A stretch of 63,749 bases of DNA, the filler included. It is 4 parts of 4 records of this genome, joined end to end, with 100 filler letters (N's around TTAATTAATTAA, not from the genome) between each part and the next. Parts side by side here need not be neighbours in the genome. Positions count along the whole stretch, not along the records: positions 1 to 23,299 come from DRR723986_9362; 3 more parts are not named here. One strand, given 5' to 3'. Positions 2,271 to 44,404 of the stretch are shown piece after piece (position 1 is the stretch's first letter; every line of letters begins with the position of its first letter). Below the pieces are notes generated by a model. The model made no database searches and was not told where the DNA came from. It saw only the letters and a program-made list of their open reading frames with translations. The translations under genes were made by a program, and so were the position numbers.

Positions 2271-2350
2271 GGGCGGCGGCCACAAACCTAAAGTCAGGAA
2301 ACCACCCATTGTAGCGGCGCGCCACAGCAGCCGGCCCGGATGTGAATTGT

Positions 2351-2417
2351 TAAACAAATCAATCACATAGATTTAACCGACATCAAACAGGCAGGCAACA
2401 AACTCAGCGTATTTTTG
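2351..2417 (+). promoter_or_regulatory. Pho-box-like 11-bp-periodic repeat array followed by a Bacteroidota-type -7 promoter element
   Basis: TAAACA/ATCACA/TTAACC/CAAACA/GCAACA start at 2351, 2362, 2373, 2384 and 2395 (exact 11-bp period); TATTTTTG (TAnnTTTG) at 2410-2417. Confidence 0.5.
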
Positions 2418-2484
2418 GCCCTTTCTGTGCTTGCGCTCCCCACAATCGACTGCAATTATTTCACACTCCCGGGATGTTTCACAC

Positions 2485-3771
2485 ATGCGAACTCTTTTAC
2501 AACTGCGCTACTTCATGTTACTTGGCTTTGGCCTCCTGTTAACAACAGCCTGTGATGACGACGACGACAACAATGATGGCGGCTCGGATTTCCCCACAGA
2601 ACCCGTAGCGCTTGAACCGCGCACCGCGCTGGAGTCATTCGGTGACGTCACCGTCTGGAACGGCGGTTATGGTTCCGGAATGTCGCTCGACCCAACATCC
2701 GACCGCCACTTCTACATCATGACTGACCGCGGACCGAACTTTGACGGTGCCGACGGCGACTCCAAAGTTTTTCCGCTGCCGGACTTTAATCCCGTGATTG
2801 GCCGTTTTCAGCTGGCAAACGGCGAGCTAAACCTCGTCTCCAGCATCGTTCTTAAAGACGCGAGCGGCACACCGATCACCGGCCTGCCAAACCCCATCGG
2901 TGCCGGCGGAACAGGTGAAACCCCTTCCGACCTCAGCGGAAACATCCTCAACTTTGATCCGAATGGCCTCGACCCCGAAGGTCTGTTTTTCCTGGATGAC
3001 GGTACGTTCTGGGTCAGCGACGAATACGGCCCCTACATGATCCACTTTAACGCCAATGGCACAACCATTGAGCGCATCAGTCCATTCTCCGAAGGTCGCC
3101 GTCTGCCGCGCGTCCTCCAGAAGCGCCGCCCCAACCGCGGAATGGAAGGCCTGACGGTCACGCCGGACAACTCCAAAGTTGTCGGCATCATGCAGTCCTC
3201 GCTCGATAACCCCAGCCGCGACGTACGCTCGACGTCGCGGGTGACCCGCATCGTGCTATTCGACGTCAACAGCGGCAGCTCACAGATGTTCATCTACGAG
3301 CAGGAAGCTCCCGCACTCAGCAACAGTGCAATTGTGGCGCTCAGCAACACGACATTCCTGGTGCTGGAGCGCGACGGCAAATTCCAGAATGATGGCGCAG
3401 TCTACAAACGCATCTACAAAATCGATATCAGCAATGCTACCGACGTCCTTGGTGATGACGGCGAAAACGGCATGCTGCTCGACGGCAAAACACTCGAAGA
3501 AAGTTCACTTTCCGAAATCAGCGCCGCTGGCATCACCTCCGTCAGTAAAAGCCTGGTACTTGACCTGTTAACAGTTTCCGGCGGTTATCCGCACGACAAA
3601 CCCGAAGGTGTTGTGCTGATTAACAGTACGATGCTCGGCATCATCAACGATGATGACTTTGGTGTTGATGACAACGGCAATGGCGGCCTGATCCAGAAAG
3701 TTTTGCCCGGAACGACTGAGACCGACAGCAATCAAATGTACTTCGTGCGCCTCTCAACGCCAGTAATGTAA
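2485..3771 (+). CDS. phytase-like esterase family lipoprotein
   Basis: Lipobox LLTTA-C plus acidic tether; TDRGPN, LDPEG, WVSDEYGP, NRGMEGL, LERD, DKPEG and INDDDFG motifs; ATG 2485 preferred to TTG 2431. Confidence 0.88.
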   Translation: MRTLLQLRYFMLLGFGLLLTTACDDDDDNNDGGSDFPTEPVALEPRTALESFGDVTVWNGGYGSGMSLDPTSDRHFYIMTDRGPNFDGADGDSKVFPLPDFNPVIGRFQLANGELNLVSSIVLKDASGTPITGLPNPIGAGGTGETPSDLSGNILNFDPNGLDPEGLFFLDDGTFWVSDEYGPYMIHFNANGTTIERISPFSEGRRLPRVLQKRRPNRGMEGLTVTPDNSKVVGIMQSSLDNPSRDVRSTSRVTRIVLFDVNSGSSQMFIYEQEAPALSNSAIVALSNTTFLVLERDGKFQNDGAVYKRIYKIDISNATDVLGDDGENGMLLDGKTLEESSLSEISAAGITSVSKSLVLDLLTVSGGYPHDKPEGVVLINSTMLGIINDDDFGVDDNGNGGLIQKVLPGTTETDSNQMYFVRLSTPVM

Positions 3772-3849
3772 GTATTGGTCGCTTTCGCGCCTACTAAACT
3801 CACCGGCTAAACTGCTTGCTGAATTCGCCGGCAGAGGGCTTTAAACTAC

Positions 3850-3900
3850 AAACAGCGGGACGTGATGTTAACGTAACACGTCCCGCTGTTTTGTTTTATC
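3850..3900. terminator. intrinsic terminator, probably bidirectional
   Basis: 15-bp perfect inverted repeat AAACAGCGGGACGTG (3850-3864) / CACGTCCCGCTGTTT (3877-3891), then a T-rich run, between convergent genes. Confidence 0.8.
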
Positions 3901-3927
3901 GTGTCGCCGCATTCGGCGACTTGACAC

Positions 3928-6453
3928 TTAGTTGTCTGAGACCAGTGCGGCCGGCACTTCGGCGGCACGGCGGCTTCCGCGACCGTTGCCATTGTTGCTG
4001 CCGTTGTTGTTTCCATTGCGGCGGCCACGGCCCGAGCTACGCTCCTGACCATTTTTACGTACAGTCGCAGCCTGTGCATTGCTAACCGTCACACGCAGGG
4101 CGCGCAGCCCCGAGACTCCCTGCATCGCTTCCAGCTCAAAGGATTCGATCTGCGCTTCGATTTTGCCGATGCTCTGCAAGTAATTCAGGAATTCTTCATA
4201 CTCGCGCGCTTCTTTAGTCTGCGAATACACAATCGCGATTTTACCCGGCTGTGTTAAACGCTCGCCAGTGTCCTTGACGACGGCTTTATCAATCCGCTTT
4301 TTGATAATCTCATAACGAATGTTGTACGCGCCGTCCACATCAAACTGCTTTTCGTCCACGCGGAAGCGGATGGCCAGTGGCGTGTCCTGCACCAGAATCA
4401 AATGCGCCGAAGAGAGCGGCAGCGGTAATTCGCTACGCAAAGCATCGGTTTTCTGCACAACTTCACACATCACTTCCAGCTGCCACAAACGCAGATTCTT
4501 CAAATACATCCGGTCAAAGTAACCATCCGCATTCAGCGAAGCGCCCACGTACATGCCATGGTCAACACCATCACTTTTGTACTTTTCAAAGTAATGCGGG
4601 AACATCGCCTGCGCATTTTCCTGGGCGCGGTCCAGAATCAGGCCGACGGCGTCATTGATTTTGGCGACGCTCTCGTCAAACTCGCGACGCTTGCGGTAGA
4701 CGATGTTAACATCCGGAGAGAGGCTGTCGTAGTAAATCTGCACCGAACCATCCACCGTCTCGGAGAAGGTGCGCAGATGTGCAAACAGCGGTTCAACTTC
4801 ATTGCGCAGATAATCCAGAATCGAGAGCTCATCCCCCGATCCCAAATGCTCAAGCACCGAGTCCACCATCTTGCTCAGCCGGAAGCCCAACTCCTCAAAG
4901 ATTGGCATCGGTTTGACCGCAGCGGCGTTGCGCACAACGTCCAGCGCCAGACTCAACTGCCCAGCCAGATCATCGCGAATACATTCGTTGCGCTTGCTGC
5001 TCGAATTGCGAATGTCGGAGAGACCATAGAGTGGATACACATTCTCAAAAACGATCGGCTCCATCTCCGTCGTTACCGGCTCACCGGCATTGCCCTGCCC
5101 CAGTACGTTAACTGCGGCACGATGGAAACGCCATTCCACGGCAGGATGAATTGCCGTGCACTCGTTCTTGATAATCTGCTGAATATGCGCGTTCAGGTCA
5201 TCAACCGAACGGCTCATCGCCACCGAAAACAGTGGCAGCACGCGTTGCATCTTCAGGATGTTCAGGCTCGTCAGGTCGCCTGGGTTGGGTGAGGCCAGCT
5301 CAATCATCCCCAGCACTTCACCATCGTGCACCAGCGGTGCCACGGCCACATTGCGCAGCCCCGCCTCCATCAGCAGGGTCTCCATCGCCGTTAAATTCTC
5401 TACGCGGCTCAGGTCCGTTTCAACTACAAAACCGCCGCTTTGATAGGCGCGGTCGTAGACCGATCTCTGGAAGGCATCGCAGGTCAGCCCACAATCTTTG
5501 GTGATCACCAGGCTGCGCCCCAGGCGGCTGGCGAACATCATCATCGTGCCGTAGTCTTTGGCAAAGGGAGTAATCCCCAGGCGCAAATCCGGGCGGCGCA
5601 TGAAGTTGCGCATCGCACGCTCCAGGCGGTCAAACGACTCGGAACTCGTCAGCGCGTCAGACTCAATCAAACGATATTTGAGGCGTGAGAGGGTTTCCTG
5701 CTCACTTACGTCAATCGCCGTGAAAATCGAAATGCCATGGAATACAAAACGGTCCAGTGGCAGCATGCGCCCCCATTGCTCCAGATCCGTCGAATTTTTC
5801 ATTAAAGCGTCAAGGTCACAATCGTCCAGCTGCGGCAGCTCGCCCACAACCTCGATGTCCATAAAACGCAGATCAATTTCGCTCTGGAAATGCAGGTCCA
5901 GCCCCGTGTCCGGATTCGTCGCGGAAAAGACCCACGGCACTACGAACTCAAACTTCCGTCCGTAGAAACGCGTCAGAATCAAGCTGTAGGCATTCATGAT
6001 TTTAGCATGCATCACCACGTCGATGTCCATATTCACACGGAACATCTTCTCGGCATCACCCGCATCACCCGACACGTACTTGTGGAAGGTTTTGGTCGCA
6101 TAAATGACCTCGGTGGAAAACGGCCGGAAGGCACCAACCATCGCCGAAGCCTGTTGTGCTGGTGGCACGATTGCCGTCATCAGGCACTCAATCAGATCGC
6201 GGTGTTTTTCTACTGCACTTGGATCCACGGAAGGCTCCAGCAGTTCCGGTGCGGCTTCTGCCAGCTCCAGAATCTCACCTGCCATTTTCGAGTGCAGCCC
6301 GTCGGAATTCTGCACCATCTGCCGCCAAAAATCGATCAGCTTTTCAAAACTAAGCCGCGACTGCATGTGGATTCCACGCTCCGCCAAATACTCATCTATC
6401 GTACGCATATTCATCTGCGCACTACGTTCAAGTGGTAACGATTTCTTATCCAT
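3928..6453 (-). CDS. large GAF-domain protein with a putative divergent class III nucleotidyl cyclase C-terminal region (paralog 1)
   Basis: GAF signature GLRNVAVAPLVHDGEVLGMIELAS; C-terminal YPLYGLSDIRNSS, EKYKSDG, FDVDGAYN and ERLTQPGKIAIVYS; ATG 6453 (TTG 6486 possible). GAF call is firm, cyclase call is inference. Confidence 0.8.
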   Translation of the reverse strand: MDKKSLPLERSAQMNMRTIDEYLAERGIHMQSRLSFEKLIDFWRQMVQNSDGLHSKMAGEILELAEAAPELLEPSVDPSAVEKHRDLIECLMTAIVPPAQQASAMVGAFRPFSTEVIYATKTFHKYVSGDAGDAEKMFRVNMDIDVVMHAKIMNAYSLILTRFYGRKFEFVVPWVFSATNPDTGLDLHFQSEIDLRFMDIEVVGELPQLDDCDLDALMKNSTDLEQWGRMLPLDRFVFHGISIFTAIDVSEQETLSRLKYRLIESDALTSSESFDRLERAMRNFMRRPDLRLGITPFAKDYGTMMMFASRLGRSLVITKDCGLTCDAFQRSVYDRAYQSGGFVVETDLSRVENLTAMETLLMEAGLRNVAVAPLVHDGEVLGMIELASPNPGDLTSLNILKMQRVLPLFSVAMSRSVDDLNAHIQQIIKNECTAIHPAVEWRFHRAAVNVLGQGNAGEPVTTEMEPIVFENVYPLYGLSDIRNSSSKRNECIRDDLAGQLSLALDVVRNAAAVKPMPIFEELGFRLSKMVDSVLEHLGSGDELSILDYLRNEVEPLFAHLRTFSETVDGSVQIYYDSLSPDVNIVYRKRREFDESVAKINDAVGLILDRAQENAQAMFPHYFEKYKSDGVDHGMYVGASLNADGYFDRMYLKNLRLWQLEVMCEVVQKTDALRSELPLPLSSAHLILVQDTPLAIRFRVDEKQFDVDGAYNIRYEIIKKRIDKAVVKDTGERLTQPGKIAIVYSQTKEAREYEEFLNYLQSIGKIEAQIESFELEAMQGVSGLRALRVTVSNAQAATVRKNGQERSSGRGRRNGNNNGSNNGNGRGSRRAAEVPAALVSDN

Positions 6454-6539
6454 AAGCTCAGGCTCTGGGTAGATTGTCCGCGGCAAGATCGCTCTGGACA
6501 GCTTAAGGCCTTTACGCTTTGCGTAGGCCGGCTTGATTT

Positions 6540-9059
6540 TTATGTTTTGCTCTGATCCGTCAGCGAGGAGCTGTCAAACGAAGCCACAAGTTCTTGCAGG
6601 CTTCCATTCTCGCTCGCGCCGGCAGCACCATCAACAGTCGCGGCCGCTGCGGCAGCGTCCTGCTGTCCATTACGTACAATCGGTTCGCAGGCATTAGGAC
6701 ATACATTGACGCGCAAAGCCTGCATTCCTTGAATTCCCTGCACAGAGTCCAGCTCAAGAGACTCAATTTCCGCTTCCAGATAACCAGCCGACTGCAGGTA
6801 TTCAAAGTATTCGCGATACTCAAACGCGGCTTTGGGCTGAGAGAAGACGACAGCAATCGCTCCAGGTTGCGTCAATCTTTCCTCGGTGCCGCGAATTTTG
6901 ACTTTATCGATGCGTTTTTTGATGATTTCGTAGCGCAAATTGTACGCACCATCAACGTCGAACTTCTTATCGTCCAGTCGGAAACGAACCGAAAGCGGCT
7001 CGTCATGCACCAACACTAAATGTGAAGTCTCCAGCGGAATCAGTAGCTCGGTCGCCAGCATCTGTGTGCGGCGCGCTACGCGGCAGAGCAGCAGCAACTG
7101 CCACAGGCGCAGGTTGCGCAGATACATGCGGTCAAAACCATCGCGTTCCACCAGCGATGCACCAACGTACATCACGTGTTCCACGCCGTCGGTTTTATAC
7201 TTTTCAAAATAGTGCGGGAACATTTCCTGCGCGCGATCCTGCTCATAATCCAGTAAGGTCGAAATCTCGTCGTTTAGCCGCATCAGCGAGAGGTCAAAGT
7301 CGCGGCGGCGGGCATATACCATGCCTACCGTCGGGTCAATTGAGGCCACGTAGGTATCAATAGCTGCAGCCACGTCCTCACCAAATCCGCGCAGGCGTTC
7401 AAACACCGATTCGATATTCTCGCGCAGAAAGTTCACGATTCCGGACTCATCACCGGAAACTACGCCACGGCTTATGTGGCTGATATGTTCTTCGGTGCGA
7501 TGTTTAATCTCGCGCAGAATCGGCATTGGCTCGCGGTCTAATGCTTTTTCGACCACTCGCAGCGCCATCTGTAGTTGCTTGAGCAGGTCGCTCTGGATCG
7601 CCTGATTGCGCAACTTGGAGGAATCGCGCACATCACTCAGGCCGTAGAGCGGAAAGACATCATCAAACACCAGGTCGCGCATTTGTGCCGTGGCGTCATT
7701 ACCGCGCTCTTCCAGCAGCTTAAAAGCCGCCGAACGGAAACGCCACTCCACCGTAGGGTGGATTGACGTGTATTCTTCCTTAATCAGCGCTTCCACGTGA
7801 TTGTTGAGCTCATCTGCACTGCGATCCAGCGCCACCGCAAACAGGGGCAGCAGGTCGCGAATTTTTATCAGATTGACGGTGTTAAAGTCATGCGCGTCCG
7901 GGCTGCCCAGCTCTAACATGCCCACCATCTGGCCATCGTGCAGCAGCGGCGCTACCACCACATTGCGCAGGCCCAGCTGGCGGAAACGTTCTTCCAGAAC
8001 GCCACAAGAGTCCAAAGTCTCCAGATCGTCAATTATCTCAACTTTACCCGAGCGGGCGGCACTGCCATACAAAGACTCAAGGACGGACTCCGATGTTGCC
8101 AGGCACTCATGTGTCAGCGCCAGGCTGCGTCCCAACTGACGCGAAAGTCCAAGTGTGTTGTCCAGGCCGGCGGCATAGGCTGCCACTCCCAGGCGCATCG
8201 TGGGCCGTTTCAGGTAGGCACGCACCTTATTTTCCAGTTCGGTAAAAACCGCCTCGGAGCTGAGCGCCCCCTTTTGGAGCAGGTCAAAGCGCATACCGGA
8301 AAGCATTTCCTGGTCGGTTATGTCCGTGGCATGCATGATGGTAAAACCGCGCATCTCAAAGTTTTCCGGTGGCAGAATGCGCAGCCAAACATCCAGGTTT
8401 GTCATGTTCGTGCGTAGCTCGGCCAGTTCGGCTTCACTGAGTTCCTTGTGCTCACCGTGCTCGATAATGTCTATGAAGCGCGGATCAATCATGATTTTGT
8501 AGTGCCGCTCCAGCCCGGTATCCGGATCGGGAGCCACAAAAACGACGGGAAACTCAAAGCGTAGGTTCACACCATAAACCTTGCCCATGATCGCTACATA
8601 CATGTGCACCATGCGCGCCAGGAACATCTGCTGTTCCTCAAAGTTCATCGTGAAGTTTATTTCGCCTTCACGCAGGCGCAGGTAGCGATTGAAGTTTTCG
8701 GTAGTAAACAGCGGCTGCATGTCCAGTGGTGAGACCGCCGCAATCAGATGGCGCTCCCAGGCTCCCGGAGCTATGATGCCCGAAAACAGGAAATCTACCA
8801 GGGGTCTGTGTTTTTCTATTACTGTGACATCAGTGATGACGCCATGCAGCTCTTCGCACTGCTCCACGAGTTCAAACAGGCGCTGCCATTCGGCTTTGAG
8901 CGGATGGTCGGTTTTGAGAAGTCGGTTGCGCCAAAAATCGCGCAGGCTGTCCAGACTCAGGGTTTGGCTGAGTGGTTTTTCAGCGGTCCCGGAATAGTGA
9001 AACAGCTTGACTTCCTGCAGGCTTGCTTCGTTTCCTGTTTGCATACGTTGGCTCGGCAC
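6540..9059 (-). CDS. large GAF-domain protein with a putative divergent class III nucleotidyl cyclase C-terminal region (paralog 2)
   Basis: Collinear with the adjacent gene along its length: GLRNVVVAPLLHDGQMVGMLELGS, FPLYGLSDVRDSS, EKYKTDG, FDVDGAYN, ERLTQPGAIAVVFS; start GTG 9059 or ATG 9044. Confidence 0.8.
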   Translation of the reverse strand: MPSQRMQTGNEASLQEVKLFHYSGTAEKPLSQTLSLDSLRDFWRNRLLKTDHPLKAEWQRLFELVEQCEELHGVITDVTVIEKHRPLVDFLFSGIIAPGAWERHLIAAVSPLDMQPLFTTENFNRYLRLREGEINFTMNFEEQQMFLARMVHMYVAIMGKVYGVNLRFEFPVVFVAPDPDTGLERHYKIMIDPRFIDIIEHGEHKELSEAELAELRTNMTNLDVWLRILPPENFEMRGFTIMHATDITDQEMLSGMRFDLLQKGALSSEAVFTELENKVRAYLKRPTMRLGVAAYAAGLDNTLGLSRQLGRSLALTHECLATSESVLESLYGSAARSGKVEIIDDLETLDSCGVLEERFRQLGLRNVVVAPLLHDGQMVGMLELGSPDAHDFNTVNLIKIRDLLPLFAVALDRSADELNNHVEALIKEEYTSIHPTVEWRFRSAAFKLLEERGNDATAQMRDLVFDDVFPLYGLSDVRDSSKLRNQAIQSDLLKQLQMALRVVEKALDREPMPILREIKHRTEEHISHISRGVVSGDESGIVNFLRENIESVFERLRGFGEDVAAAIDTYVASIDPTVGMVYARRRDFDLSLMRLNDEISTLLDYEQDRAQEMFPHYFEKYKTDGVEHVMYVGASLVERDGFDRMYLRNLRLWQLLLLCRVARRTQMLATELLIPLETSHLVLVHDEPLSVRFRLDDKKFDVDGAYNLRYEIIKKRIDKVKIRGTEERLTQPGAIAVVFSQPKAAFEYREYFEYLQSAGYLEAEIESLELDSVQGIQGMQALRVNVCPNACEPIVRNGQQDAAAAAATVDGAAGASENGSLQELVASFDSSSLTDQSKT

Positions 9060-9227
9060 TGAAATGGTACGATCGAAGTCCAGCTAAATAGCATCTTTTT
9101 CAATGCCAAAGCAAACGTTTTAGCACCTGATAAAGTGCCCCAGCCATTAGGAGAGTTATAGCGCAGTCCGTTTGGTGCTCTGGGGACAGCTACGTTTCAT
9201 CCAAACCTGATGTCTGAGTTTGCATAA

Positions 9228-9875
9228 TCAGACATATGAGATAGTGATCGTAAAACCGATTCTTTGTGGTCTAATCTCGTACTCCGGCTTAATGATCACT
9301 TCCAGCAGATTAATGAAGTATTCCAGCGTGATTGTTCTGTTTTGTGCGTTGACGGAACCGCGTACATCAACGGTATAACCCTGTTTGGGGTCTCCAAAAC
9401 CATTGCTCTCACCCAGTCTAACGCCTTCTGGAACTTCCAGGCTGAAGGGGTAAACACCAAGCTGAATAGCGTTTCCGGGTTCCAGAACCCTTGTCTCTCC
9501 GTCCAGGATCAATCTTGAAAAGTTCATGTCTATTCTGGTGATGTAGAGCTGCTGATCCAAAAAATCGCTCTCCAAATCGGCCACGGCACCGAATCTGATA
9601 AGTGCAGATATTGGGTCATCCGGATCGCTGAGTTGCAGTTGCGGCTCCTGTTCGCTGTCAATCACATACTTAACTGGAATTTCGCCTTCGTCAATCGTCA
9701 GGCGAAATTCAGCCGAAAACTCTTCGACATCCGCAAAATCGATTGGATCCAGATCTACCGAACGCGGCGTGGTGATATCGTCAGACTGCGCGCAGGCGCC
9801 CAGGAGCAGGACCATCGCCAAGGTTGGCAGTAGCAGAGCGTAAAAACGGCGAATATTCACGGAATCAAGCCTCAT
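9228..9875 (-). CDS. hypothetical lipoprotein
   Basis: Signal peptide with lipobox LLLGA-C; beta-rich acidic mature region; third gene of the ECF cassette. Confidence 0.7.
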   Translation of the reverse strand: MRLDSVNIRRFYALLLPTLAMVLLLGACAQSDDITTPRSVDLDPIDFADVEEFSAEFRLTIDEGEIPVKYVIDSEQEPQLQLSDPDDPISALIRFGAVADLESDFLDQQLYITRIDMNFSRLILDGETRVLEPGNAIQLGVYPFSLEVPEGVRLGESNGFGDPKQGYTVDVRGSVNAQNRTITLEYFINLLEVIIKPEYEIRPQRIGFTITISYV

Positions 9876-9920
9876 TAATTAAGCGCACTAACAGCTGGAC
9901 AAACGAGTATTGGCATAGTA

Positions 9921-11261
9921 CTAGAAACGTACTGAAGCCCCGTAAAACCAGCCAAATTTGGAAGAAGTATACTGCACTCCGTTGATATCATACCACAAGT
10001 GGCTGAATTCAACGCCAAAGGACAGGGCAATCGAACTTTGTGGATTGCTGCGAATTCCAATAATTCCCTTTGCCAGCGGCCCAACTTCAGTAGTGCCGGC
10101 CAGTCCCTGAATGTACGGAAACACAATCTCCACGGGGGAAAGCGCACGCAGTTCGTAGCGCCCGAGCAAGCCGGCCCAAAACAGCTGTGGGTTCTGCCGG
10201 ACCGTAGCATTGCGGTCGAGCAAAACAGTCCGATATTCCTGGCCAAACGATTCGCGGCCACCTTCAATGCCTACAATCATGCTTTTTTTGAGCTCGTACG
10301 AAAAAGCCAGCGCGCGGTCAGCTGTAAAACCGTCTACCTGAGACGGCAAGCCGATTTCGGGGCTGGAATCGGCCAGCAGCGTACGCAGCTCAACCGTCAG
10401 TCGGCCGTCGCGCGATTGTGCCGTGCCCGGGAACTCAACATCCGCGAGGCCCTCAAGGCGGCCAAACGATTCGTCGCTGTCGCGCTCGTCGCGGACTGAA
10501 ATGTTTCTGGTTTCCGGATCAGTGCCAAACAAGATGGTTTCCCTCAAGACAGGGTTTTCCCTCAAACCCGGCGCCAGATTGGCTGACGCCGGTACTTGAG
10601 GACTACTGCGCGACTCACTGAAATCGGTAACCTCGGAAGGTTGAACCGAACTTGTGTTTGCTCCCTGAGCAAGAACTGAATTTGCGTCCACATTTGGGGC
10701 GCCTGAATTTTGCATTGTTTGCACGGTTTGGTCTGTTCCCGCGCGACTATTTCCCGCATCCGCCGTGAATGTATTCTCTTTGCCGCTTGCTGAAGCCGGC
10801 ACTACACCTGCCGCATCCCCGAACACACCTGCCTCCGCAATCCGTGGCCACGGGAAGGCCATGTCAACTTCTACTGCGCCTGCACCGGGCCGTGGGTCTG
10901 TTGCGATCATCTCTGTATCGGAGCCCCAGGGCAGCATCAATAAAAACATCAGCAGAGCACCGATACTTGCTGCCAGGCCATGTGAGCCGATGCGCTTAAA
11001 ACCCGCCAGAAAACGCGTCCCCAGCGCTGGTGAGGCAGCCACGGGACTGCTATATCCTACAGCCGCAAAAATGTTGGCCGTGGCGGCAGCCGGCGCGGCA
11101 ATTGTCGGGACCTCCTGCTGCACAATTGAGTGCATATGCAAGTGATCCTGCAACTGATGGCGCAGACCGGCATCGCGGGCCAACTCACTGAACAGCACTT
11201 CCTGTTCAGCCTGGCCCAGCTCACCGTCTAAAAATTCACGCAACATAGTTTCTGAGTTCAT
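9921..11261 (-). CDS. putative anti-sigma factor with a C-terminal outer-membrane beta-barrel-like domain
   Basis: N-terminal LREFLDGEL anti-sigma-like helix; one TM (LAASIGALLMFLLMLPW); long S/T/A/P-rich linker; alternating beta-strands ending YGASVRF; 16 bp downstream of the ECF sigma gene. Confidence 0.65.
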   Translation of the reverse strand: MNSETMLREFLDGELGQAEQEVLFSELARDAGLRHQLQDHLHMHSIVQQEVPTIAAPAAATANIFAAVGYSSPVAASPALGTRFLAGFKRIGSHGLAASIGALLMFLLMLPWGSDTEMIATDPRPGAGAVEVDMAFPWPRIAEAGVFGDAAGVVPASASGKENTFTADAGNSRAGTDQTVQTMQNSGAPNVDANSVLAQGANTSSVQPSEVTDFSESRSSPQVPASANLAPGLRENPVLRETILFGTDPETRNISVRDERDSDESFGRLEGLADVEFPGTAQSRDGRLTVELRTLLADSSPEIGLPSQVDGFTADRALAFSYELKKSMIVGIEGGRESFGQEYRTVLLDRNATVRQNPQLFWAGLLGRYELRALSPVEIVFPYIQGLAGTTEVGPLAKGIIGIRSNPQSSIALSFGVEFSHLWYDINGVQYTSSKFGWFYGASVRF

Positions 11262-11277
11262 GACTACACCTCAGCCT

Positions 11278-11844
11278 TCACTGGAATTTTTCAATGTCGG
11301 CCAAATAAGGCGAAAGTATATTCCTGATGCGGTCCTTGGCGCGCCAAACGCGGTTCTTCAAGGCAGGAATAGTATCGCCAGTGATTTCTGCTATTTGTGA
11401 GTAGGACATGCCTTCGTATTCCTTGAGCACAAATGCTTCGCGGTATTTGATGTCCAGCAGCCCCAGGGCAGTTTCGATCAGCTCCAGCAAATCGCGCCGC
11501 TCGTAGCTCTCATCCCGACTGGAAAAAGTGAAGTCGTCCAGATCAAGGAACTGCTTTTTATCACGACGGTGATTGTAACACAGGTTACGAGCAATCTTAA
11601 AGAGATAAGAAGGTACATTCTGGACTTCATAACTCTTGAGCGCCGCACGATGAAAACGAATGAAGGTCTCCTGGTAGACATCCTGGGCATCACCATGGTC
11701 GCCCAAAATCTTGAGGCAATACATAAACACACGGTTACCAAAACGTGCGTAAAGCTCAGCGAAGGCACGCTCACCTTCCGCCTTGCCGCCCGCAATGCGT
11801 GAGTATAACTCAAAGTCACTCGTGTTTTTGTCGATGTTCTGCAT
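11278..11844 (-). CDS. ECF-family RNA polymerase sigma-70 factor
   Basis: Region 2 (AQDVYQETFIR, YLFKIARN) and region 4 (YREAFVLKEYEGMSYSQIAE..TIPALKNRVWRAK). Confidence 0.93.
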   Translation of the reverse strand: MQNIDKNTSDFELYSRIAGGKAEGERAFAELYARFGNRVFMYCLKILGDHGDAQDVYQETFIRFHRAALKSYEVQNVPSYLFKIARNLCYNHRRDKKQFLDLDDFTFSSRDESYERRDLLELIETALGLLDIKYREAFVLKEYEGMSYSQIAEITGDTIPALKNRVWRAKDRIRNILSPYLADIEKFQ

Positions 11845-12066
11845 CAGGTCTGCCGGAGTGCGCCTGTTTTACGCTACCAGGGAAGCAGCGCGCCACAGTG
11901 GCATTCCAAGTCGTCCGCAATTGTGTCCGTCGATCCTTTCCATCGGTCTGCACGGCCCGCATTTTTACATCACAGGCCGGCATAGCAGTGGAATGGCAAT
12001 AGGACACAGCTAAAACTGAAAGAGTCTCAAAGAGATTTTGGCACAGTGAGCAGATGGTGCTGCCGC

Positions 12067-14148
12067 TCAGGCCAGAGAACGTAAATACTCAAGGGTTTCG
12101 ACCTGAGCATCACAGCTCTCACGGCGACGTGTGGTGACATAGCGGTTGCTCAGACGTTGATCTATAACGCGTGCCTTGACCGTATCATTCGTATGCAGCG
12201 TCATGAGTTCCTGCAATGTTTTGCGGACGGCGGGATCGTGGAGTGGCACACCAACTTCAATGCGCGAATCGAGATTGCGGCGCATCCAGTCTGCCGAAGC
12301 CAGATACATTTTGTCTTCGCCGCCGGCGTGAAACATGAAAACACGCGGATGTTCCAGGAAACGCCCAACAATGCTGGTAATCTTAACATTTTCACTCATG
12401 CCACGCACGCCGGGAACCAGACAGCAGATTCCGCGAATAATCAAACGTACTTCCACTCCGGCAGCCGAGGCTTTGTAGAGGCGTTTAATCATTTTGCGAT
12501 CTTCCAGCGAGTTCATCTTGGCAAAAATTCGCGCCGGTTTACCGGCTTCGGCCGCCGCGATTTCAGCATCGATTAAGGCGCGGAACTCTTCGCGCATGCC
12601 CGCCTGCGCTACCAGCAGATGTTTAAACTTGCGCTCCGGCATGTCTTTTTTCTGCAGCGCTTCAAACACATTACCTGCATCGGCGGCGATACCGGGGTGA
12701 GCGGTAAACAAACCAAAGTCTGTGTAAATCTTAGCTGTTTTTTCGTTAAAATTCCCTGTGCCAACGTAAACATACTCTCTCAGGCTCTCGCCTTCACGGC
12801 GTGCAACGTAGGCCAGCTTGGCGTGAACTTTGAGGGCGGGCATACTGTATAGAACTTGCACACCGGCCTTCTCCATTTCGGCGGCCCAATAAATGTTAAG
12901 TTCTTCGTCAAAGCGCGCCTTAACTTCTACAAACGCCAGCACACGTTTACCATTGCGTGCAGCGCGGATCAGCGCCTCAACGACTTCGGATTTGGCAGAG
13001 ACACGGTACAAGGTGACGCTGATCTTCTCAACAGCTGGGTCTTCAGCGGCTTCCTGCAGAAAGCGCGAGACATAGGTAAATGATTGATATGGAAAATGTA
13101 GTAGTTGATCCTGTTCGGCAAGACACTTAAACAAACTCTCACTTTGCTCAAAGGCGCGCAGCGGCAGCACTTCCTGCTTGGGGTATTCCAGATCGGAGCG
13201 CCCAAAAGTAGGAAAAGCAAAAAAGTCGTTAAAGTTGTGGTAACGTCCGCCGGGCACCAAATCGGCCTTGTTTAATTTAAACGAATGACGCAGGAAGGAC
13301 AGGAACCCCTCAGGCATATCCATATCGTATAAGAACCGAGCAGGCACACCTACATGCCGCTTCTGAATACCTTCTTTGATTTTTGCAACCAGGTCGCCGG
13401 AGGTCTCATCGTCGATGTACATCTCGGCATCACGTGTTAACTTGATCGAATAGGTGGCAAGCGGATCGTGTTTTGGAAAAATCAGCGGCAAACTATCGCG
13501 GATGATATCATCCAGAAACATAACCGAATGGCCTTTGCGCGAGGCGGGCACCTGCACAAACCGCCCGAGCTTGTCGGATGGAATTTCCAGAATTGCCCAA
13601 TTCGAGCGGCGCGTACGCCGGAAGGTGCCGCGCTCAACATCTTTTTCTATCAACTGAACTGTTAAGTACAGTGCTTTATTCTTGAGGAAAGGTGGATTGG
13701 TGTCTTCATCAATGATGACTGGTTCGAGGAGGGCCTGAACATGTTCGCGAAAGTAGCGCCGTGCGTAACGCCGCTGATTGCGCGTAATCTGGCGTTCATT
13801 CGGCAAATGAATGCCGGCGGCATTCATTTCGGGCAGCACTTGTTGGCGGTAGATTTCGCCAAAGCTGTCCTGCTGGCGTTTAACAATGCGGTGAATATGG
13901 CGCAGCAGTTCCTTAGGTGGAACGTCGCGCTTTTTGCTTTTGTGTTTAGGCAGATCTGCCAGGCTGCGCGTCAGCGCTACACGAACGCGGAAAAACTCGT
14001 CCAGATTTGACGAAAAGATGGCTAAAAAACGCAGGCGTTCAAACAGCGGAACGGTCCTATCGGCCGCCTCCTGTAAAACGCGGTGGTTAAACGCCAGCCA
14101 GCTGATATCGCGGTCGTGGTAGCGCTGTTCTGTTTGCAGTTCTAACAT
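12067..14148 (-). CDS. ppk1: polyphosphate kinase 1
   Basis: RDISWLAFNHRVLQEA, FSSNLDEFFRVRV, LLHFPYQSF, EVKARFDEE, KVHAK, GTGNFN, GRFLEH and SADWMRRNL; ATG 14148 avoids overlap with sixA. Confidence 0.97.
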   Translation of the reverse strand: MLELQTEQRYHDRDISWLAFNHRVLQEAADRTVPLFERLRFLAIFSSNLDEFFRVRVALTRSLADLPKHKSKKRDVPPKELLRHIHRIVKRQQDSFGEIYRQQVLPEMNAAGIHLPNERQITRNQRRYARRYFREHVQALLEPVIIDEDTNPPFLKNKALYLTVQLIEKDVERGTFRRTRRSNWAILEIPSDKLGRFVQVPASRKGHSVMFLDDIIRDSLPLIFPKHDPLATYSIKLTRDAEMYIDDETSGDLVAKIKEGIQKRHVGVPARFLYDMDMPEGFLSFLRHSFKLNKADLVPGGRYHNFNDFFAFPTFGRSDLEYPKQEVLPLRAFEQSESLFKCLAEQDQLLHFPYQSFTYVSRFLQEAAEDPAVEKISVTLYRVSAKSEVVEALIRAARNGKRVLAFVEVKARFDEELNIYWAAEMEKAGVQVLYSMPALKVHAKLAYVARREGESLREYVYVGTGNFNEKTAKIYTDFGLFTAHPGIAADAGNVFEALQKKDMPERKFKHLLVAQAGMREEFRALIDAEIAAAEAGKPARIFAKMNSLEDRKMIKRLYKASAAGVEVRLIIRGICCLVPGVRGMSENVKITSIVGRFLEHPRVFMFHAGGEDKMYLASADWMRRNLDSRIEVGVPLHDPAVRKTLQELMTLHTNDTVKARVIDQRLSNRYVTTRRRESCDAQVETLEYLRSLA

Positions 14149-14173
14149 CTTGTAGTCTTCCTTTCGCTGAGCT

Positions 14174-14689
14174 TCAGTCTGCGTAATCGTCGGAAGTGGT
14201 GTACTTTTTAGGATATTCAAAAAACACCACACTTCCGTTGTTCTGGCGGATGTCCGTCCAGCGTTCAACATCAAATTCAATCGCTACTATCGCACTGGTT
14301 GGAATATTGTCAATACGGTAGTTGCTTAACATGTTGGAGAGCCATGTTAAACTGGGATTGTGCCCAAACAACATCACACTGGCATGGCGGTCAGTAGATG
14401 AGTGGATCACCTCAAGCAGGTCTTTCGGCGTCGCCTCATAAATGCGTTCATCCGTCCGCAGTTGATGTAGTGGAAAAGAAATGGCATTGGCCAGAATGCG
14501 AGCATAGGTAATCGCGCGGCTGGCCGGACTGGAGATAATGGCATCCGGACGGACGCGTTTGCGCCGCATGACTTCGCCCATCAGCGGAGCGTCACGCCGG
14601 CCACGTCCGTTGAGGGGACGTTCAAAATCTGTTAACTCTTCATATTTCCAGCTGGACTTGGCATGCCGTGCCAGATAAACAGTTTTCAT
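14174..14689 (-). CDS. sixA: SixA-like phosphohistidine phosphatase
   Basis: LARHAKSSW, DFERPLNGRG, SSPASRA and FGHNP histidine phosphatase motifs. Confidence 0.88.
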   Translation of the reverse strand: MKTVYLARHAKSSWKYEELTDFERPLNGRGRRDAPLMGEVMRRKRVRPDAIISSPASRAITYARILANAISFPLHQLRTDERIYEATPKDLLEVIHSSTDRHASVMLFGHNPSLTWLSNMLSNYRIDNIPTSAIVAIEFDVERWTDIRQNNGSVVFFEYPKKYTTSDDYAD

Positions 14690-14777
14690 ACCAAAACTCC
14701 ACGTACACTTGCCATTTCAAAACAAGTGGAATACAGATGGAGCCGGGGCTCATCGGCTGGAAAATTAGACTTGTTGG

Positions 14778-14795
14778 CTAACACAGATTTAACAC
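14778..14795. promoter_or_regulatory. 11-bp-spaced direct repeat upstream of sixA-ppk1 (possible response-regulator site)
   Basis: CTAACAC-agat-TTAACAC, with TAACA cores at 14779 and 14790. Confidence 0.3.
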
Positions 14796-14835
14796 TCGAT
14801 TGGGTACGCAGGACGATCAACACTTACACCTTTAA

Positions 14836-16062
14836 TCAGGCAGCAATTACTGCAACGCCGAAGGCGAGGATCGACAGGATTAACCCGTACATAAATACAT
14901 CGTATGAGATCCGCAGGAATTTGTACTTGCGGCTAAGAACGCGCCCCAGAAAGAACAAATCCTTTGTCAGACTATCATACAGGTATTCACGATCGCTCAT
15001 CATCTCGCGCATTCCCCAAACATAGTCGTCCAGGGTCACGTTAAAAAAGTTGCCAAAAAACAACAGGTTTACACGCCGTTCTTTGACGTCCGTTTGCGTA
15101 AAAGTTCCCTCGGTCACTTTGGGACGCGTGGAAATGGTCGCAAAGATCAACGTCACAACACAAACAGTCAGCAAGAGGAGCGTTGGCGCAATCAAATGCG
15201 GATTCGCTTGCAGGTCATCAACCAGTAAACTTACCACAATCGAGATTATGATAGCGTTAACACTGATGAGCATGTTCGCTTTGTTATCAGCAATCGCACT
15301 GAGGTTGATGTGGTTGCGCATGGTAACGCGGAACATCGTCTCAATTCCGCGGTCCGGAACAATCGATTTGTTCTTGATTGACTCAAGCTTCTTCTTCTGG
15401 ACTTTGAGCTTGATGTCTTCTTCTTCGCGCTTGCGTTTACGCTTGCGCATCTTTTTCTTGAGTTTGGCGATTGTGGCCAGCTTGGTCGCCTGGTAATTGG
15501 CCACGGCGTAGTCGGTAAAAAACTGGTGTTCCAGCAAAAACTGAATGCTTTTTTTCATCCAGTCTACATCGCGGTAGCGCTCTTGTGACGTGTGTTCCCA
15601 CTCAACGCGCAGCAGGTCATTACTTTCCTGAAAAGACTCCAGGCCCACATGCTGCAGGTCAGCATCACAGATAACCTTTTCCATCATCGTCTGCGGGTTG
15701 GGCGGATACTTTGTGACCTGGATAAGGGAACGCACCGTATCAATCTTGGCGGCAGGGTAATTACGTGCCTGCAGGTATTCCGCAGCCATTTCCGCACTGT
15801 TTTGCTCGTGATCTTCACGTCCATGGATATATCCAATGTCATGAAACCAGGCCGCCAACTGAACCATCTCCAGTTCTTCGGCATTTAAGCCCGAAGCTTC
15901 ACCTATAAGGCACGCAGCATCTACGACTTTCGAGGTATGCGCGTAGTTGTGGTAAATGTAGGAGTTTTCTAACTGACGACTGAGAATTGAAGCAACGTGA
16001 TCGCTCACATCCTTCAACAAAACTTCAGTATCACCCATGCTTGCCTGGCTAGTTGTACTCAT
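14836..16062 (-). CDS. HD-domain phosphohydrolase fused to a PycTM/DUF5706 transmembrane effector domain
   Basis: YHNYAH, AAWFHDIG, DHE and CDADL (HD fold); basic linker; then ADNKAN, TM-TM-RP, LLFFGNF, RKYKFLR and a final TM (PycTM pattern); ATG 16062 has an AGGAG RBS. Confidence 0.85.
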   Translation of the reverse strand: MSTTSQASMGDTEVLLKDVSDHVASILSRQLENSYIYHNYAHTSKVVDAACLIGEASGLNAEELEMVQLAAWFHDIGYIHGREDHEQNSAEMAAEYLQARNYPAAKIDTVRSLIQVTKYPPNPQTMMEKVICDADLQHVGLESFQESNDLLRVEWEHTSQERYRDVDWMKKSIQFLLEHQFFTDYAVANYQATKLATIAKLKKKMRKRKRKREEEDIKLKVQKKKLESIKNKSIVPDRGIETMFRVTMRNHINLSAIADNKANMLISVNAIIISIVVSLLVDDLQANPHLIAPTLLLLTVCVVTLIFATISTRPKVTEGTFTQTDVKERRVNLLFFGNFFNVTLDDYVWGMREMMSDREYLYDSLTKDLFFLGRVLSRKYKFLRISYDVFMYGLILSILAFGVAVIAA

Positions 16063-16158
16063 TCGCTCCTGCGCCCTAAAACGTATAGGCAGTGCAAAAA
16101 AGCCGTAAAGTATCAATAATTAAGGCGCGGTGCAATCTGGGATCGGAACCGGTCTCGA

Positions 16159-18486
16159 CTATCTGCGTTCTGACTTACTTGTGTCTTGCTCCTTAGCCTG
16201 CTCACGAAGGCTGCGGTGCTCCCTTTCTCCGTCCTCTTTATCTTCGTGAAACGTTTCATTGCGCGCTTCAAGGTCGAGCCAATCGAGCAATTCGCGTTCC
16301 TCATCCAGAACCTGTCTGATTGGGGCAGGCTCGGTAGGTGGCGCCTCCTGTGGCTCTTCACGACCGATGTATGGGTTATCACTCGTCTGGCGGATGAGCT
16401 TGGGTTTTTCGACCACGTCAAACTGGAAGGCCAGTGCATCCTGATAGTTCAACAGTGGGTCGTTGTAGGTTTGCTGCATGAACTTGGCCCAGATTGGTGC
16501 AGCTGCGCGACCACCCTGCCCATTTTCGTCGGGGAATTTGACCAAGATATCATCAAATCCTACCCAAACGCCGGCGCAGAGCTGCGGCGTATATCCCACG
16601 AACCATGCGTCTGTATAATCATTTGTGGTACCGGTTTTGCCGGCGGCCGCTTCTATCGGAAACAGTGAACGCACGCGCACGGCCGTCCCACCAGCAATTA
16701 CATTGCGCAGCATCGTAGTCATATATGCGGCGGTGCGTTCAGATATTGCGTCGGACGCCTCAACGAAACCCTTGCGGTCAAAAATGATATTGCCAAAGCG
16801 GTCTTCAATGCGCTCAATTGTATAGGGCTGGACATGCACGCCACGATTCGGAAAGACAGCAAAGGCCGCAACCAATTCGAGCGGAGAAACAACTTCCGAG
16901 CCCAATGCCATAGCCGGCACCGCCTGCAGAGGCGAAGTAATTCCCATGCGTTCAGCTGTAGCCCTGACTTCCTGTGGCGTAGCATATTCAGTAATCAAGC
17001 GACCGGCGACTGTGTTGATCGAATACTTGAGAGCCGTCGCCAGGCTGACAGTCCCAGTGGTAAAACGCGGGTGCGCGGCCAGCGCCCAGATGTCTTCTGA
17101 ACCCGGCACTTCAAATTCAAAGTCTCCAGCCTCAACCAAACTGTCAGGCGTCAGATATTCATGCTCCAGGACTGTAGCGTACAGGAAAGCCTTAAATGCC
17201 GAACCGGGCTGACGCTTGATTTGGGTGGCGCGGTTGAGTGTATAACGCTCACTTTTGCCGAACTTCGATGATCCAACCATTGCACGAATAGCGCCGGTGG
17301 AAGGATCTATCGCCGGGAACCCAATCTGAATGCGCGTTGCCTCTACTTTTACAAACTCGGCGAACTCTTCGGAGCTGCGCAGACTGTCGAGCACGACTTT
17401 GCGCGCATCACCCGAAGCATTTTTATACACCGCCGTCTGCCGTGCATATTTGTTGACCAGAGCTTTGAGTACTGAGGCATTGCGCTTCCAGGACCAGCGC
17501 TTGTCAAATTGCTTCTGCACCTTGGCCAGATGCTCCTGCACCGCCTGGTTGGCGTAGCGCTGCATGCCGGCGTTTAGGGTTGTGTGAATTACCAGGCCGT
17601 CGCGGTAAAAGTTCAGGTCTTTGGATTTGAGCAAAGGGTGCACACGCAATTCACGACGCACCATTTCGGCGAAGTGCGGCGCGATGCTGCGACGCTGGAT
17701 AGTCTCTTCCGGTGCCGCAAACACAATCTCTTCGTCCAGCGCCTCCTGGTATTCTGCGTCGCTGAGTTTGCCGACGGCATGCATACAGCTGAGGACCGTA
17801 TTGCGCCGCAGGCGCCCCGGCCCCGGCTTGGAGCGGCTGCTATACCGCGATGGGTTTTTGAGAACACCTACCAGGTAAGCGCACTGCGATGTCGTAAGCT
17901 CCAGCGGTGACTTGTTAAAGAACAGGTGCGCCGCCATCTTGAGCCCATAGGCTCCGCGACCATAGTAAACGGTGTTTGTATAGAGCCCCAGAATTTCACT
18001 TTTGGTATAACGACGCTCAATTTCAATAGCAGTGAACAGCTCGCGAACCTTGCGCTCCAGCTTGCGTTCGTGGGTCAGGTAGAGGTTGCGCGCCAGCTGT
18101 TGTGTTACCGTTGAGGCGCCCTCACCGGTGGACCATAAAATGTTGTTGCGCACAGCGCGCATAAGCCCCCAGGAGTCAAGCCCCCAGTGATCGTGAAAAT
18201 TGCGATCCTCCGTGGCCAGCAGAGCCGTCAGGAAGTCGGCGGGAATGCTGTCGCGCGAGAGCTGTGTGCGCCGCTCGCGATCGTACAAAATCTCAAGGAC
18301 TTCACCATCTTCGCTCAGAACCGTGCTCGCCAGGTCACCACGTGGGTTCTCCAGCTGTGCCAGCGATGCCAATTGGCCGCTGGTGACGTTATAAACAAAC
18401 AGCCCAACACCGCCACAAGTGGCAAGCGCCAAAAACAGCAGGGTCCAGAAGATGTATTTTGCTCTAACTCGGAATCGCATGATCAT
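16159..18486 (-). CDS. class A penicillin-binding protein (PBP1A family)
   Basis: N-terminal TM; transglycosylase motifs EDRNF, GASTVTQQLARN and RKVRE; transpeptidase motifs GSAFK (SxxK), SIN and KTG. Confidence 0.95.
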   Translation of the reverse strand: MIMRFRVRAKYIFWTLLFLALATCGGVGLFVYNVTSGQLASLAQLENPRGDLASTVLSEDGEVLEILYDRERRTQLSRDSIPADFLTALLATEDRNFHDHWGLDSWGLMRAVRNNILWSTGEGASTVTQQLARNLYLTHERKLERKVRELFTAIEIERRYTKSEILGLYTNTVYYGRGAYGLKMAAHLFFNKSPLELTTSQCAYLVGVLKNPSRYSSRSKPGPGRLRRNTVLSCMHAVGKLSDAEYQEALDEEIVFAAPEETIQRRSIAPHFAEMVRRELRVHPLLKSKDLNFYRDGLVIHTTLNAGMQRYANQAVQEHLAKVQKQFDKRWSWKRNASVLKALVNKYARQTAVYKNASGDARKVVLDSLRSSEEFAEFVKVEATRIQIGFPAIDPSTGAIRAMVGSSKFGKSERYTLNRATQIKRQPGSAFKAFLYATVLEHEYLTPDSLVEAGDFEFEVPGSEDIWALAAHPRFTTGTVSLATALKYSINTVAGRLITEYATPQEVRATAERMGITSPLQAVPAMALGSEVVSPLELVAAFAVFPNRGVHVQPYTIERIEDRFGNIIFDRKGFVEASDAISERTAAYMTTMLRNVIAGGTAVRVRSLFPIEAAAGKTGTTNDYTDAWFVGYTPQLCAGVWVGFDDILVKFPDENGQGGRAAAPIWAKFMQQTYNDPLLNYQDALAFQFDVVEKPKLIRQTSDNPYIGREEPQEAPPTEPAPIRQVLDEERELLDWLDLEARNETFHEDKEDGEREHRSLREQAKEQDTSKSERR

Positions 18487-44373: not shown

Positions 44374-44404
44374 TTGCACTTCACCGATCATCACATCAAA
44401 TTTG

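Follow-up and report, generated by a model that had tools for sequence, protein, structure and literature searches.

We analysed a stretch of 63,749 nucleotides ("the window"), composed of four parts of one genome joined end to end, for a candidate nucleotide signalling system. The system consists of two tandem genes for proteins with a GAF domain and a cyclase-like C-terminal domain (GAF-cyclase-like proteins A and B, "GAF proteins" below) and of one gene for a protein that combines an HD hydrolase domain with a PycTM membrane module (HD-PycTM). We propose that the GAF proteins are divergent class III cyclases and, more tentatively, that they may signal to HD-PycTM. Using Pfam and NCBIfam, eight genes were identified on the minus strand at positions 3928-16116, and one convergent gene on the plus strand:

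2431-3771, plus strand: phytase-like beta-propeller gene (E 4.8e-49), convergent with the gene for GAF protein A.

3928-6486, minus strand: GAF-cyclase-like protein A, an open reading frame (ORF) of 852 amino acids (aa); GAF_2 with E 5.9e-4 and 20.5 bits, under the Pfam cut-off.

6540-9059, minus strand: GAF-cyclase-like protein B, 839 aa; GAF_2 with E 3.1e-9 and 37.6 bits, against a cut-off of 28.6 bits.

9228-9875, minus strand: lipoprotein of 215 aa without a family, with a signal peptide and a lipobox-like LLGAC; last gene of a cassette with an extracytoplasmic function (ECF) sigma factor.

9921-11261, minus strand: probable anti-sigma membrane protein, 446 aa, so called from its place after the ECF sigma gene and a weak anti-sigmaE hint (E 0.12).

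11278-11844, minus strand: ECF-type sigma factor (Sigma70_r2, E 3e-14; Sigma70_r4_2, E 1.9e-11; TIGR02937, 80 bits, over the cut-off).

12067-14280, minus strand: polyphosphate kinase 1 (ppk1), with four PPK1 domains (one N-terminal, one middle, two C-terminal; E 2.3e-34 to 1.3e-69).

14174-14689, minus strand: SixA-like histidine phosphatase (His_Phos_1, E 5.6e-11).

14836-16062, minus strand, ORF open to 16116: HD-PycTM, with PycTM (PF18967; E 1.8e-34) and HD (PF01966; E 6.1e-7, over the cut-off).

These assignments bore out the initial annotation, which had named the same genes at these positions, on one strand and with the phytase-like gene convergent on them. Protein A probably starts at an internal ATG near 6453. 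HD-PycTM is likely to start with the ATG at 16062, i.e. residue 19 of its ORF, since the resulting 408 aa fit the size range of its relatives (see below). The SixA-like protein reached 42 bits with TIGR00249 (sixA), below the cut-off of 74.5 bits, and is a member of His_Phos_1 only. A scan for promoters and terminators yielded sites no more commonly than in shuffled sequence, so that the operon limits are defined by spacing alone. The initial annotation had also claimed that a canonical PycC cyclase is absent, and indeed the 63.7-kb window, with its 55 non-overlapping ORFs of at least 70 aa, gave no match with the family Guanylate_cyc (E limits of 0.01 and 1e-4), nor did proteins A and B match it even at E values up to 10. 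The distance between the two presumed partners, described as about 5.8 kb with the ECF cassette in between, was measured as 5777 nt from the start of the gene for protein B to the end of the HD-PycTM gene.

Proteins A and B are 43% identical over 775 aa. In a FastTree family tree, for which 76 of the 78 rows were used and two rows of <600 aa were left out, they form a sister pair with a support of 98, i.e. they are the closest relatives of each other and thus represent an old, lineage-specific tandem duplication. Two copies of the GAF gene are present in none of the other 80 related loci. The family has 99 columns that are at least 90% conserved; protein A departs at four of them (95 of 99 kept) and protein B at eight, and since all departures are conservative, there is no sign of a complementary decay as in heterodimeric cyclases.

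A pattern scan confirmed at least 575 relatives of the GAF proteins in species-representative genomes from many phyla. All locus counts given below are for the best 80 of these at least 575 relatives. Bacteroidota contribute 32 of the 80 loci, eleven other phyla contribute 38 (including Thermodesulfobacteriota, Rokuibacteriota, Methylomirabilota, Ignavibacteriota, Gemmatimonadota, and Poribacteria), and 10 have no phylum label. The source names of the proteins are "GAF domain-containing" or "hypothetical" only. About a third of the relatives carry the Pfam 38.1 label PF27174 ("YeeD"). When the ESM Atlas was searched with the C-terminal part, only the family's own clusters were retrieved, and the N-terminal part had no match there. 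When shorter versions of the C-terminal domain were sought, 1801 matches were obtained, most of them from contigs of 1-3 kb. In those parts of the literature that were accessible to our searches, neither the GAF family nor HD-PycTM fusions were found to be described, and the same applies to a link of these to ppk1.

Protein B is composed of an N-terminal alpha/beta region (residues ~30-260), a GAF domain (~265-395), long helices (394-454), and a cyclase-homology-like domain (463-786). Protein A is below the GAF_2 cut-off, yet it aligns with protein B throughout, and GAF structures match the GAF fold of the model. A full-length AlphaFold2 model of protein B, based on 48 sequences, had a predicted local distance difference test (pLDDT) value of 86.3, and its best matches in the PDB were a phytochrome-linked adenylate/guanylate cyclase (6fht, E 1.9e-7), DosP, and soluble guanylate cyclase. 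When residues 455-795 were modelled alone with 50 sequences, the pLDDT was 91.2 and the predicted TM-score (pTM) was 0.86. In a Foldseek comparison of this C-terminal model with the PDB, all of the 37 matches listed were catalytic domains of class III adenylyl, guanylyl, or uridylyl cyclases, one of them being the Pycsar-type uridylate cyclase of Anabaena (8jsz). The best E value was 1.9e-4, and six of the matches listed had E values of 1e-3 or lower. The TM-scores by target ranged from 0.41 to 0.57 for single catalytic-domain chains and were lower for long multi-domain chains. The predicted order of elements is strand, long helix, three extra helices, helix, hairpin, helix, three strands, helix, and strand-helix-strand-strand. 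In our reading, this order fits a cyclase-homology domain with a predicted helical insert that follows the first helix and is about 75-100 residues long. On the basis of these models, we have high confidence that the C-terminal domain adopts the class III cyclase fold.

In class III cyclases, two Asp residues bind the catalytic metals. To predict the corresponding positions, residues were counted over 78 members of the GAF family, and the Pfam-confirmed cyclase of the related locus L003 (Guanylate_cyc, E 1.2e-28) served as comparator, all positions being mapped by eye on secondary-structure elements. D476 at the end of the first strand, within S-D-I-R-G-S-S, is present in all 78 members; the equivalent motif of the L003 cyclase is L-D-I-R-G-F-T. 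The hairpin reads K-T-D-G...Y-V-G-A-S-L in the GAF family and L-G-D-G...F-G-A-P-L in the comparator, and D624, G625, and G633 are each conserved in 78 of 78 members. The same is true for F700 and G704 in F-D-V-D-G-A-Y-N, which follows the third strand of the next sheet and corresponds to Y-S-I-S-G-N-T-V. The last strands contain Q-G-V-x-G-L-x-A-L-R-V, compared with V-K-G-R-E-K-P-I-T-I-Y-K-V in the L003 cyclase. R484, D491, H616, K719, R728, and R783 are likewise invariant in the family, and both paralogues A and B keep the invariant residues. In the accessible part of a published account, Pycsar cyclases are described as having class III catalytic motifs and requiring divalent cations (PMC11224242). 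Taken together, the conserved positions suggest with moderate confidence that the C-terminal domain of the GAF proteins probably keeps a two-metal site for nucleotidyl transfer.

A first rival explanation is that the cyclase-like domain is not a cyclase. It could instead be a pseudo-enzyme that serves for output or dimerisation, or else a palm-type enzyme of another chemistry, and the GAF domain would be a receiver of cyclic nucleoside monophosphates (cNMPs) made by ordinary cyclases. GAF domains are classic cNMP receivers, and several observations weigh against an active cyclase and speak for this explanation. Sequence methods did not show any cyclase signal: phmmer and hmmsearch against the PDB gave 0 cyclases for the GAF proteins, the 25 Pfam families listed for 50 members with E values up to 10 did not include Guanylate_cyc, and NCBIfam revealed no cyclase relation. 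With hhalign, a probability of <1% was obtained for a single cyclase as well as for a profile of 151 cyclase sequences (the L003 cyclase and 150 representatives), irrespective of whether the whole or three parts were used. Furthermore, position 707, in the helix that follows the dimerisation arm and is expected to hold the canonical Asn...Arg pair, is Asn in 50 and Asp in 28 of the 78 members, and position 711, four residues further on, is Glu in 72 of 78 members where the L003 cyclase has Arg; like that of the other residues, this mapping was done by eye, not by structural alignment. R709, K714, R716, and K719 are conserved near position 707.

The rival could also draw on canonical class III cyclase genes in the vicinity of some GAF genes. 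They adjoin the GAF gene, in divergent orientation, in three loci of deltaproteobacterial type, i.e. L051 (8140-9702), L067 (8128-9750), and L043 (5879-9526), and encode two HAMP-cyclase proteins and one cyclase-AAA_16-TPR protein. In L003 (Ignavibacteria), a canonical cyclase gene (5129-6424) lies 3.5 kb from the GAF gene. This could indicate cross-talk of two types of cyclases or could be due to chance in cyclase-rich genomes. Deltaproteobacteria have many class III cyclases per genome, and thus three adjacent cyclases in 80 loci are weak evidence. The conservation, in contrast, speaks against a non-catalytic domain. Many of the 99 conserved columns hold charged residues that lie on the catalytic face as predicted, and the two Asp residues expected to bind metals are found in 78 of 78 members, whereas pseudo-enzymes usually lose such residues. 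We consider it rather improbable that the domain is not a cyclase. With regard to the initial annotation, which had ascribed cyclase-like C-termini to the GAF proteins and had regarded them as the missing synthase, the fold and the invariant Asp residues at the expected metal positions of a cryptic cyclase-type domain bear out the former claim and are compatible with the latter, but sequence profiles see no cyclase.

The second component, HD-PycTM, has its membrane part at the C-terminus. The last 160 residues match the PADLOC models of PycTM (~160 aa) with an E value of 2.3e-13 at positions 20-152 of 160, and they also match models for "2TM" effectors of CBASS. As nearly the full length of the PycTM model is covered, the whole-effector module of Pycsar is fused here to an N-terminal HD domain, to which it is joined by a linker rich in Lys, Arg, and Glu. 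All of the 121 relatives compared retain H56, H60, H92, D93, H103, E104, and D151, and the His...His-Asp...Asp metal ligands of the HD superfamily (H56, H60, H92, D93, D151) are intact. At least 6208 clusters (90% identity) passed among 8000 candidates scored for this family; the 120 relatives listed are 398-429 aa long and 43-78% identical to the query over about 90% of its length. The accessible part of a recent study assigns PycTM and PucTM to the pJV1-spdB3 family of proteins with three transmembrane segments (3TM), reports a hexameric channel-like structure, calls the position of the nucleotide in it unresolved, and describes a recurrent link of cyclases to this 3TM family in defence systems (10.64898/2026.08.12.744502).

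The initial annotation had assumed that the HD domain degrades the cyclic nucleotide, which did not find support. In Pfam and NCBIfam, only generic HD and sub-cut-off HDIG matches were obtained, and none of the families of class I phosphodiesterases, HD-GYP, 7TMR-HD, or c-di-GMP or c-di-AMP phosphodiesterases was matched, i.e. the domain does not fit any cNMP phosphodiesterase family there. The nearest solved relative is an uncharacterised hydrolase (BH2835, PDB 3dto; E 1e-3), and a cNMP-binding domain is not present. These results count against the circuit proposed below. A stand-alone 3TM protein of 193 aa without HD (PycTM E 4.2e-28), which is close to the 3TM half of HD-PycTM, is encoded at positions 12827-13408 of locus L075; its gene adjoins the GAF gene and overlaps a SixA-like gene by 4 nt. 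The fusion to HD is thus not obligatory.

The presence of a PycTM module raises the question of whether the locus is a true anti-phage defence system of the Pycsar type with a cyclase that has diverged past recognition. The module matches both Pfam and PADLOC models, relatives of HD-PycTM are named "Pycsar system effector family protein" by NCBI, and the window contains a phage-like block (see below). However, this block is 34 kb away, and the GAF proteins match no PADLOC model. PycC does not adjoin the effector, the window contains no Guanylate_cyc or PADLOC PycC match, and the cyclase-like genes are 5.8 kb off, past two transcription units. The neighbouring genes, which encode Ppk1, a phosphatase, and a penicillin-binding protein, are neither of the defence nor of the mobile type. 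HD-PycTM proteins form a very large family with members that are similar over most of their length (see above), unlike defence genes, which the accessible part of the study mentioned above characterises as fast-evolving (10.64898/2026.08.12.744502). A defence-type context and rapid evolution were thus not found, and a diverged anti-phage system appears highly improbable. The reading as a defence island was rejected on the grounds of the neighbours in phosphorus metabolism, the conserved family, and the distance of the phage block. The initial annotation had likewise placed the locus in a phosphate/polyphosphate setting rather than in phage defence, and the neighbouring genes agree with this.

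To estimate the gene linkage across the family, 1127 ORFs from the 80 loci and the window (81 sources) were clustered all against all. No neighbour is conserved family-wide, and the largest neighbour cluster is present in only 8 of the 81 sources. In Bacteroidota, a recurring set was found that comprises HD-PycTM, ppk1, a SixA-like gene, a gene for a protein of ~1220 aa (Metallophos-Omp85), and a gene for a small SdiA-regulated/phytase-like propeller. The arrangements, with the positions of Metallophos-Omp85 together with the propeller gene where present, are:

L028 and L060 (Reichenbachiella): Metallophos-Omp85 and propeller (1706-6300 and 1792-6347, respectively), HD-PycTM, ppk1, and GAF gene, in this order.

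L070 (Saprospiraceae): Metallophos-Omp85 (3739-7575), GAF gene, and HD-PycTM on one strand, the ATG of HD-PycTM being 1 nt past the stop codon of the GAF gene.

L075: GAF gene, then the convergent SixA-like gene and the gene for the 193-aa 3TM protein, followed by propeller and Metallophos-Omp85 (13426-17963) and by ppk1.

L032 (Cyclobacteriaceae): ppk1 and GAF gene, divergent.

L078 (Cyclobacteriaceae): GAF gene, followed by the Omp85 C-terminal part of a Metallophos-Omp85 homologue, which is cut by the contig end.

The ~1220-aa protein, which travels with HD-PycTM in L028, L060, L070, L075, and also L081 (4979-9613), has an N-terminal calcineurin-like phosphoesterase domain and a C-terminal barrel of the Omp85 type. 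The small SdiA-regulated/NHL/phytase-like propeller gene accompanies it in four of these five loci; none was found in L070. The two look like a conserved, uncharacterised phosphoesterase module of the outer membrane.

Among the 80 loci, HD-PycTM or the 3TM gene is present in four, ppk1 in four, Metallophos-Omp85 in five, and any member of the set in six. A profile search did not raise the count for HD-PycTM/3TM beyond 4 of 80. The linked loci are six of the 32 from Bacteroidota and show five different gene orders. On the family tree, the linked rows require four changes, at least three of which are forced by well-supported branches (L078 is not included in this count). The linkage of the GAF family with HD-PycTM is thus real but partial. 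The synteny that the initial annotation had put forward as a check holds for 4 of 80 loci, in one case with a same-strand gap of 1 nt, but it is lacking in the 74 unlinked loci and was not seen outside of Bacteroidota.

The partial nature of the linkage is the basis of a further rival explanation, i.e. that the GAF-cyclase-like proteins are free-standing sensor enzymes with targets elsewhere, and that they lie close to HD-PycTM and ppk1 in some Bacteroidota only through synteny, either inherited or due to co-regulation, without any direct signal between them. Several results favour it and count against a signalling pair. No linkage was found in 74 of the 80 loci, including 15 of 15 from Hymenobacteraceae and 48 of 48 from other or unlabelled phyla, the family is common in phyla without any link seen, and the largest neighbour cluster reaches 8 of 81 sources. 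In the window itself, the GAF genes and HD-PycTM are 5.8 kb apart with another operon in between, and in Chondrinema litorale they are located on separate replicons. As a yardstick for plain synteny we used Tag (3-methyladenine glycosylase), an unrelated single-copy gene near the GAF gene in seven loci (Cytophagales and one other bacterium). When the loci were divided into lineages, i.e. 30 groups at 55% or higher identity of the GAF proteins, ppk1, HD-PycTM, and Metallophos-Omp85 spanned three of 30 groups each, and Tag spanned four. The group numbers alone are therefore not decisive.

The arrangement, in contrast, differs between the phosphorus set and Tag. Tag has a constant placing, convergent and directly downstream of the GAF gene, in three maps (L028, 12574-13140; L032, 12642-13211; and L060), whereas the phosphorus set occurs in five gene orders, including the 1-nt same-strand junction in L070. 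In addition, HD-PycTM was found to be paired independently with canonical cyclases. A protein search in a plasmid collection revealed full-length HD-PycTM in three plasmid records, and a canonical cyclase gene adjoins it in two of them. On pFA2 of Fulvitalea axinellae, Metallophos-Omp85, propeller, and HD-PycTM are followed 261 nt downstream by an adenylate/guanylate cyclase gene on the same strand (Guanylate_cyc, E 5.8e-6, over the cut-off), the product of which has the canonical motifs in an alignment with the L003 cyclase. On a plasmid of Persicobacter, a gene for a 42%-identical cyclase (E 8.5e-6) is convergent on HD-PycTM. In the third record (Chondrinema), no canonical cyclase is next to HD-PycTM. 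The plasmid pairing is limited to two related genera. Nevertheless, the canonical cyclase of pFA2 adjoins HD-PycTM in a module that elsewhere includes ppk1 and the GAF gene as well, and no other observation argues as strongly for HD-PycTM acting together with a cyclase and for the GAF family as its functional stand-in. HD-PycTM was thus found repeatedly beside cyclase-type genes, as the initial annotation implied, i.e. the GAF family in 4 of 80 loci and canonical cyclases in two of three plasmid records. In view of these results, we regard plain synteny as a somewhat unlikely explanation.

The ECF cassette and the phytase-like gene of the window, which the initial annotation had listed at the locus, do not belong to the recurring set: neither the products of the three cassette genes nor the phytase-like protein had a homologue in any of the 80 related loci. 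We interpret the cassette as a lineage-specific insertion between ppk1 and the GAF genes that is outside of the system. The lipoprotein encoded at 9228-9875 has no match in Pfam or NCBIfam. In the protein encoded at 9921-11261, the N-terminus is short and cytoplasmic, and hydrophobic residues at about 95-110 were read as one membrane helix; its C-terminal region ends with ...GASVRF, which looks like the barrel signature of outer-membrane proteins and would not be usual in an anti-sigma factor. The phytase-like gene of the window was dropped as a part of the system because a pairwise comparison of its product with the propeller of the recurring module showed no similarity (E 0.10), and it is probably context only.

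The fold, the conserved residues, the partial linkage, and the plasmid pairing make a signalling pair of a cyclase and a 3TM protein outside of phage defence plausible. In the circuit that we propose, the GAF proteins would be ligand-regulated enzymes, in which the N-terminal alpha/beta region and the GAF sensor would act via the long signalling helices on the divergent cyclase-homology domain. A cyclic or otherwise activated nucleotide would be made from a nucleoside triphosphate at the putative two-metal site. This signal would act on the 3TM module of HD-PycTM, the candidate receptor, and the HD domain might hydrolyse either this signal or some phosphorylated metabolite. The circuit would affect how phosphate and polyphosphate are handled, to which Ppk1 and the SixA-like phosphatase point, and HD-PycTM would be the constant membrane component of a phosphorus-metabolism neighbourhood in Bacteroidota. 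As a whole, this Pycsar-like physiological circuit is a tentative proposal, which we rank above the rival explanations, but to which we give somewhat less than even weight.

An extended version of the proposal, which we regard as doubtful, is that the circuit is a housekeeping cousin of Pycsar. The cryptic GAF-regulated cyclase, in some lineages replaced by a membrane-bound canonical cyclase, would make a cyclic nucleotide that gates a hexameric HD-3TM membrane assembly controlling the handling of phosphate or polyphosphate, the HD domain would end the signal, and the PycTM of phage defence would be a stripped-down offshoot of this channel family. The parts and the logic are known; their combination, i.e. 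a cryptic GAF-cyclase family with a family of thousands of HD-fused 3TM proteins in a housekeeping phosphorus context, did not turn up in the literature covered. If the GAF proteins are active cyclases, sequence annotation has missed a class III-type cyclase family that occurs in many phyla, in no fewer than 575 species-representative genomes. If they signal to HD-PycTM, the 3TM module, which is known only as an abortive-infection effector, would gain a physiological, non-lethal mode, and a second-messenger layer would be added to polyphosphate control in Bacteroidota. The system would then also offer a tractable route to nucleotide sensing by PycTM-type proteins and to the origin of defence signalling.

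Several other features of the window were noted. A block of structural genes of a T7-like podovirus is located at 50180-63749 and has a G+C content of 0.58-0.61, compared with about 0.53. Its ORFs include one of 1401 aa that matches no family, one of 839 aa with a phage lysozyme domain, and one of 810 aa with an F5/8 type C domain. A T7 gp14-family protein is also encoded, and a head-tail connector gene is present with its end only, at the window edge. The block may represent all or the margin of a prophage. Positions 37629-38283 contain a gene for a BrnA-type antitoxin (37936-38283, plus strand), the start of which is overlapped by an opposite-strand ORF of 106 aa without a family. Positions 43912-48290 contain in a row genes for a MarR regulator, a tripartite ATP-independent periplasmic (TRAP) transporter (DctP, DctQ, DctM), and an enzyme of the phosphoenolpyruvate mutase/isocitrate lyase family, and genes for a calcineurin-like phosphoesterase and an OprB-type porin are located further upstream (41469-43765).

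The proposed circuit can be compared with three known types of systems. In the Pycsar and Pucsar systems (PycC/PucC with PycTM/PucTM), an enzyme with a cyclase fold is also recurrently linked to the same 3TM family (PF18967), and by analogy the same logic would apply, i.e. a nucleotide signal acting on a 3TM assembly. The differences are that the sequence of the GAF enzyme does not identify it as a PycC, as neither Pfam nor PADLOC gave a match, and that it has a GAF domain, N-terminal sensor domains, and a helical insert, that an intact HD hydrolase domain is attached to the 3TM module, that the genes are usually not adjacent, and that the context is phosphorus metabolism and the HD-PycTM family, which is not known to have a phage phenotype, is large and conserved. 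The second type is represented by GAF-regulated and phytochrome-linked class III cyclases (6fht), of which the cyanobacterial enzymes of the CyaB type are an example of GAF regulation. They share with the GAF proteins the sequence of sensor domain, long helix, and cyclase-homology domain. In contrast to them, the cyclase domain of the GAF family has no detectable sequence relation, contains a large helical insert after the first helix, and has Glu instead of Arg four residues after the conserved Asn/Asp. The third type comprises HD-superfamily phosphohydrolases such as BH2835 (3dto), with which HD-PycTM has the conserved His and Asp metal ligands in common, but its HD domain is tethered to a 3TM membrane module via the linker rich in Lys, Arg, and Glu.

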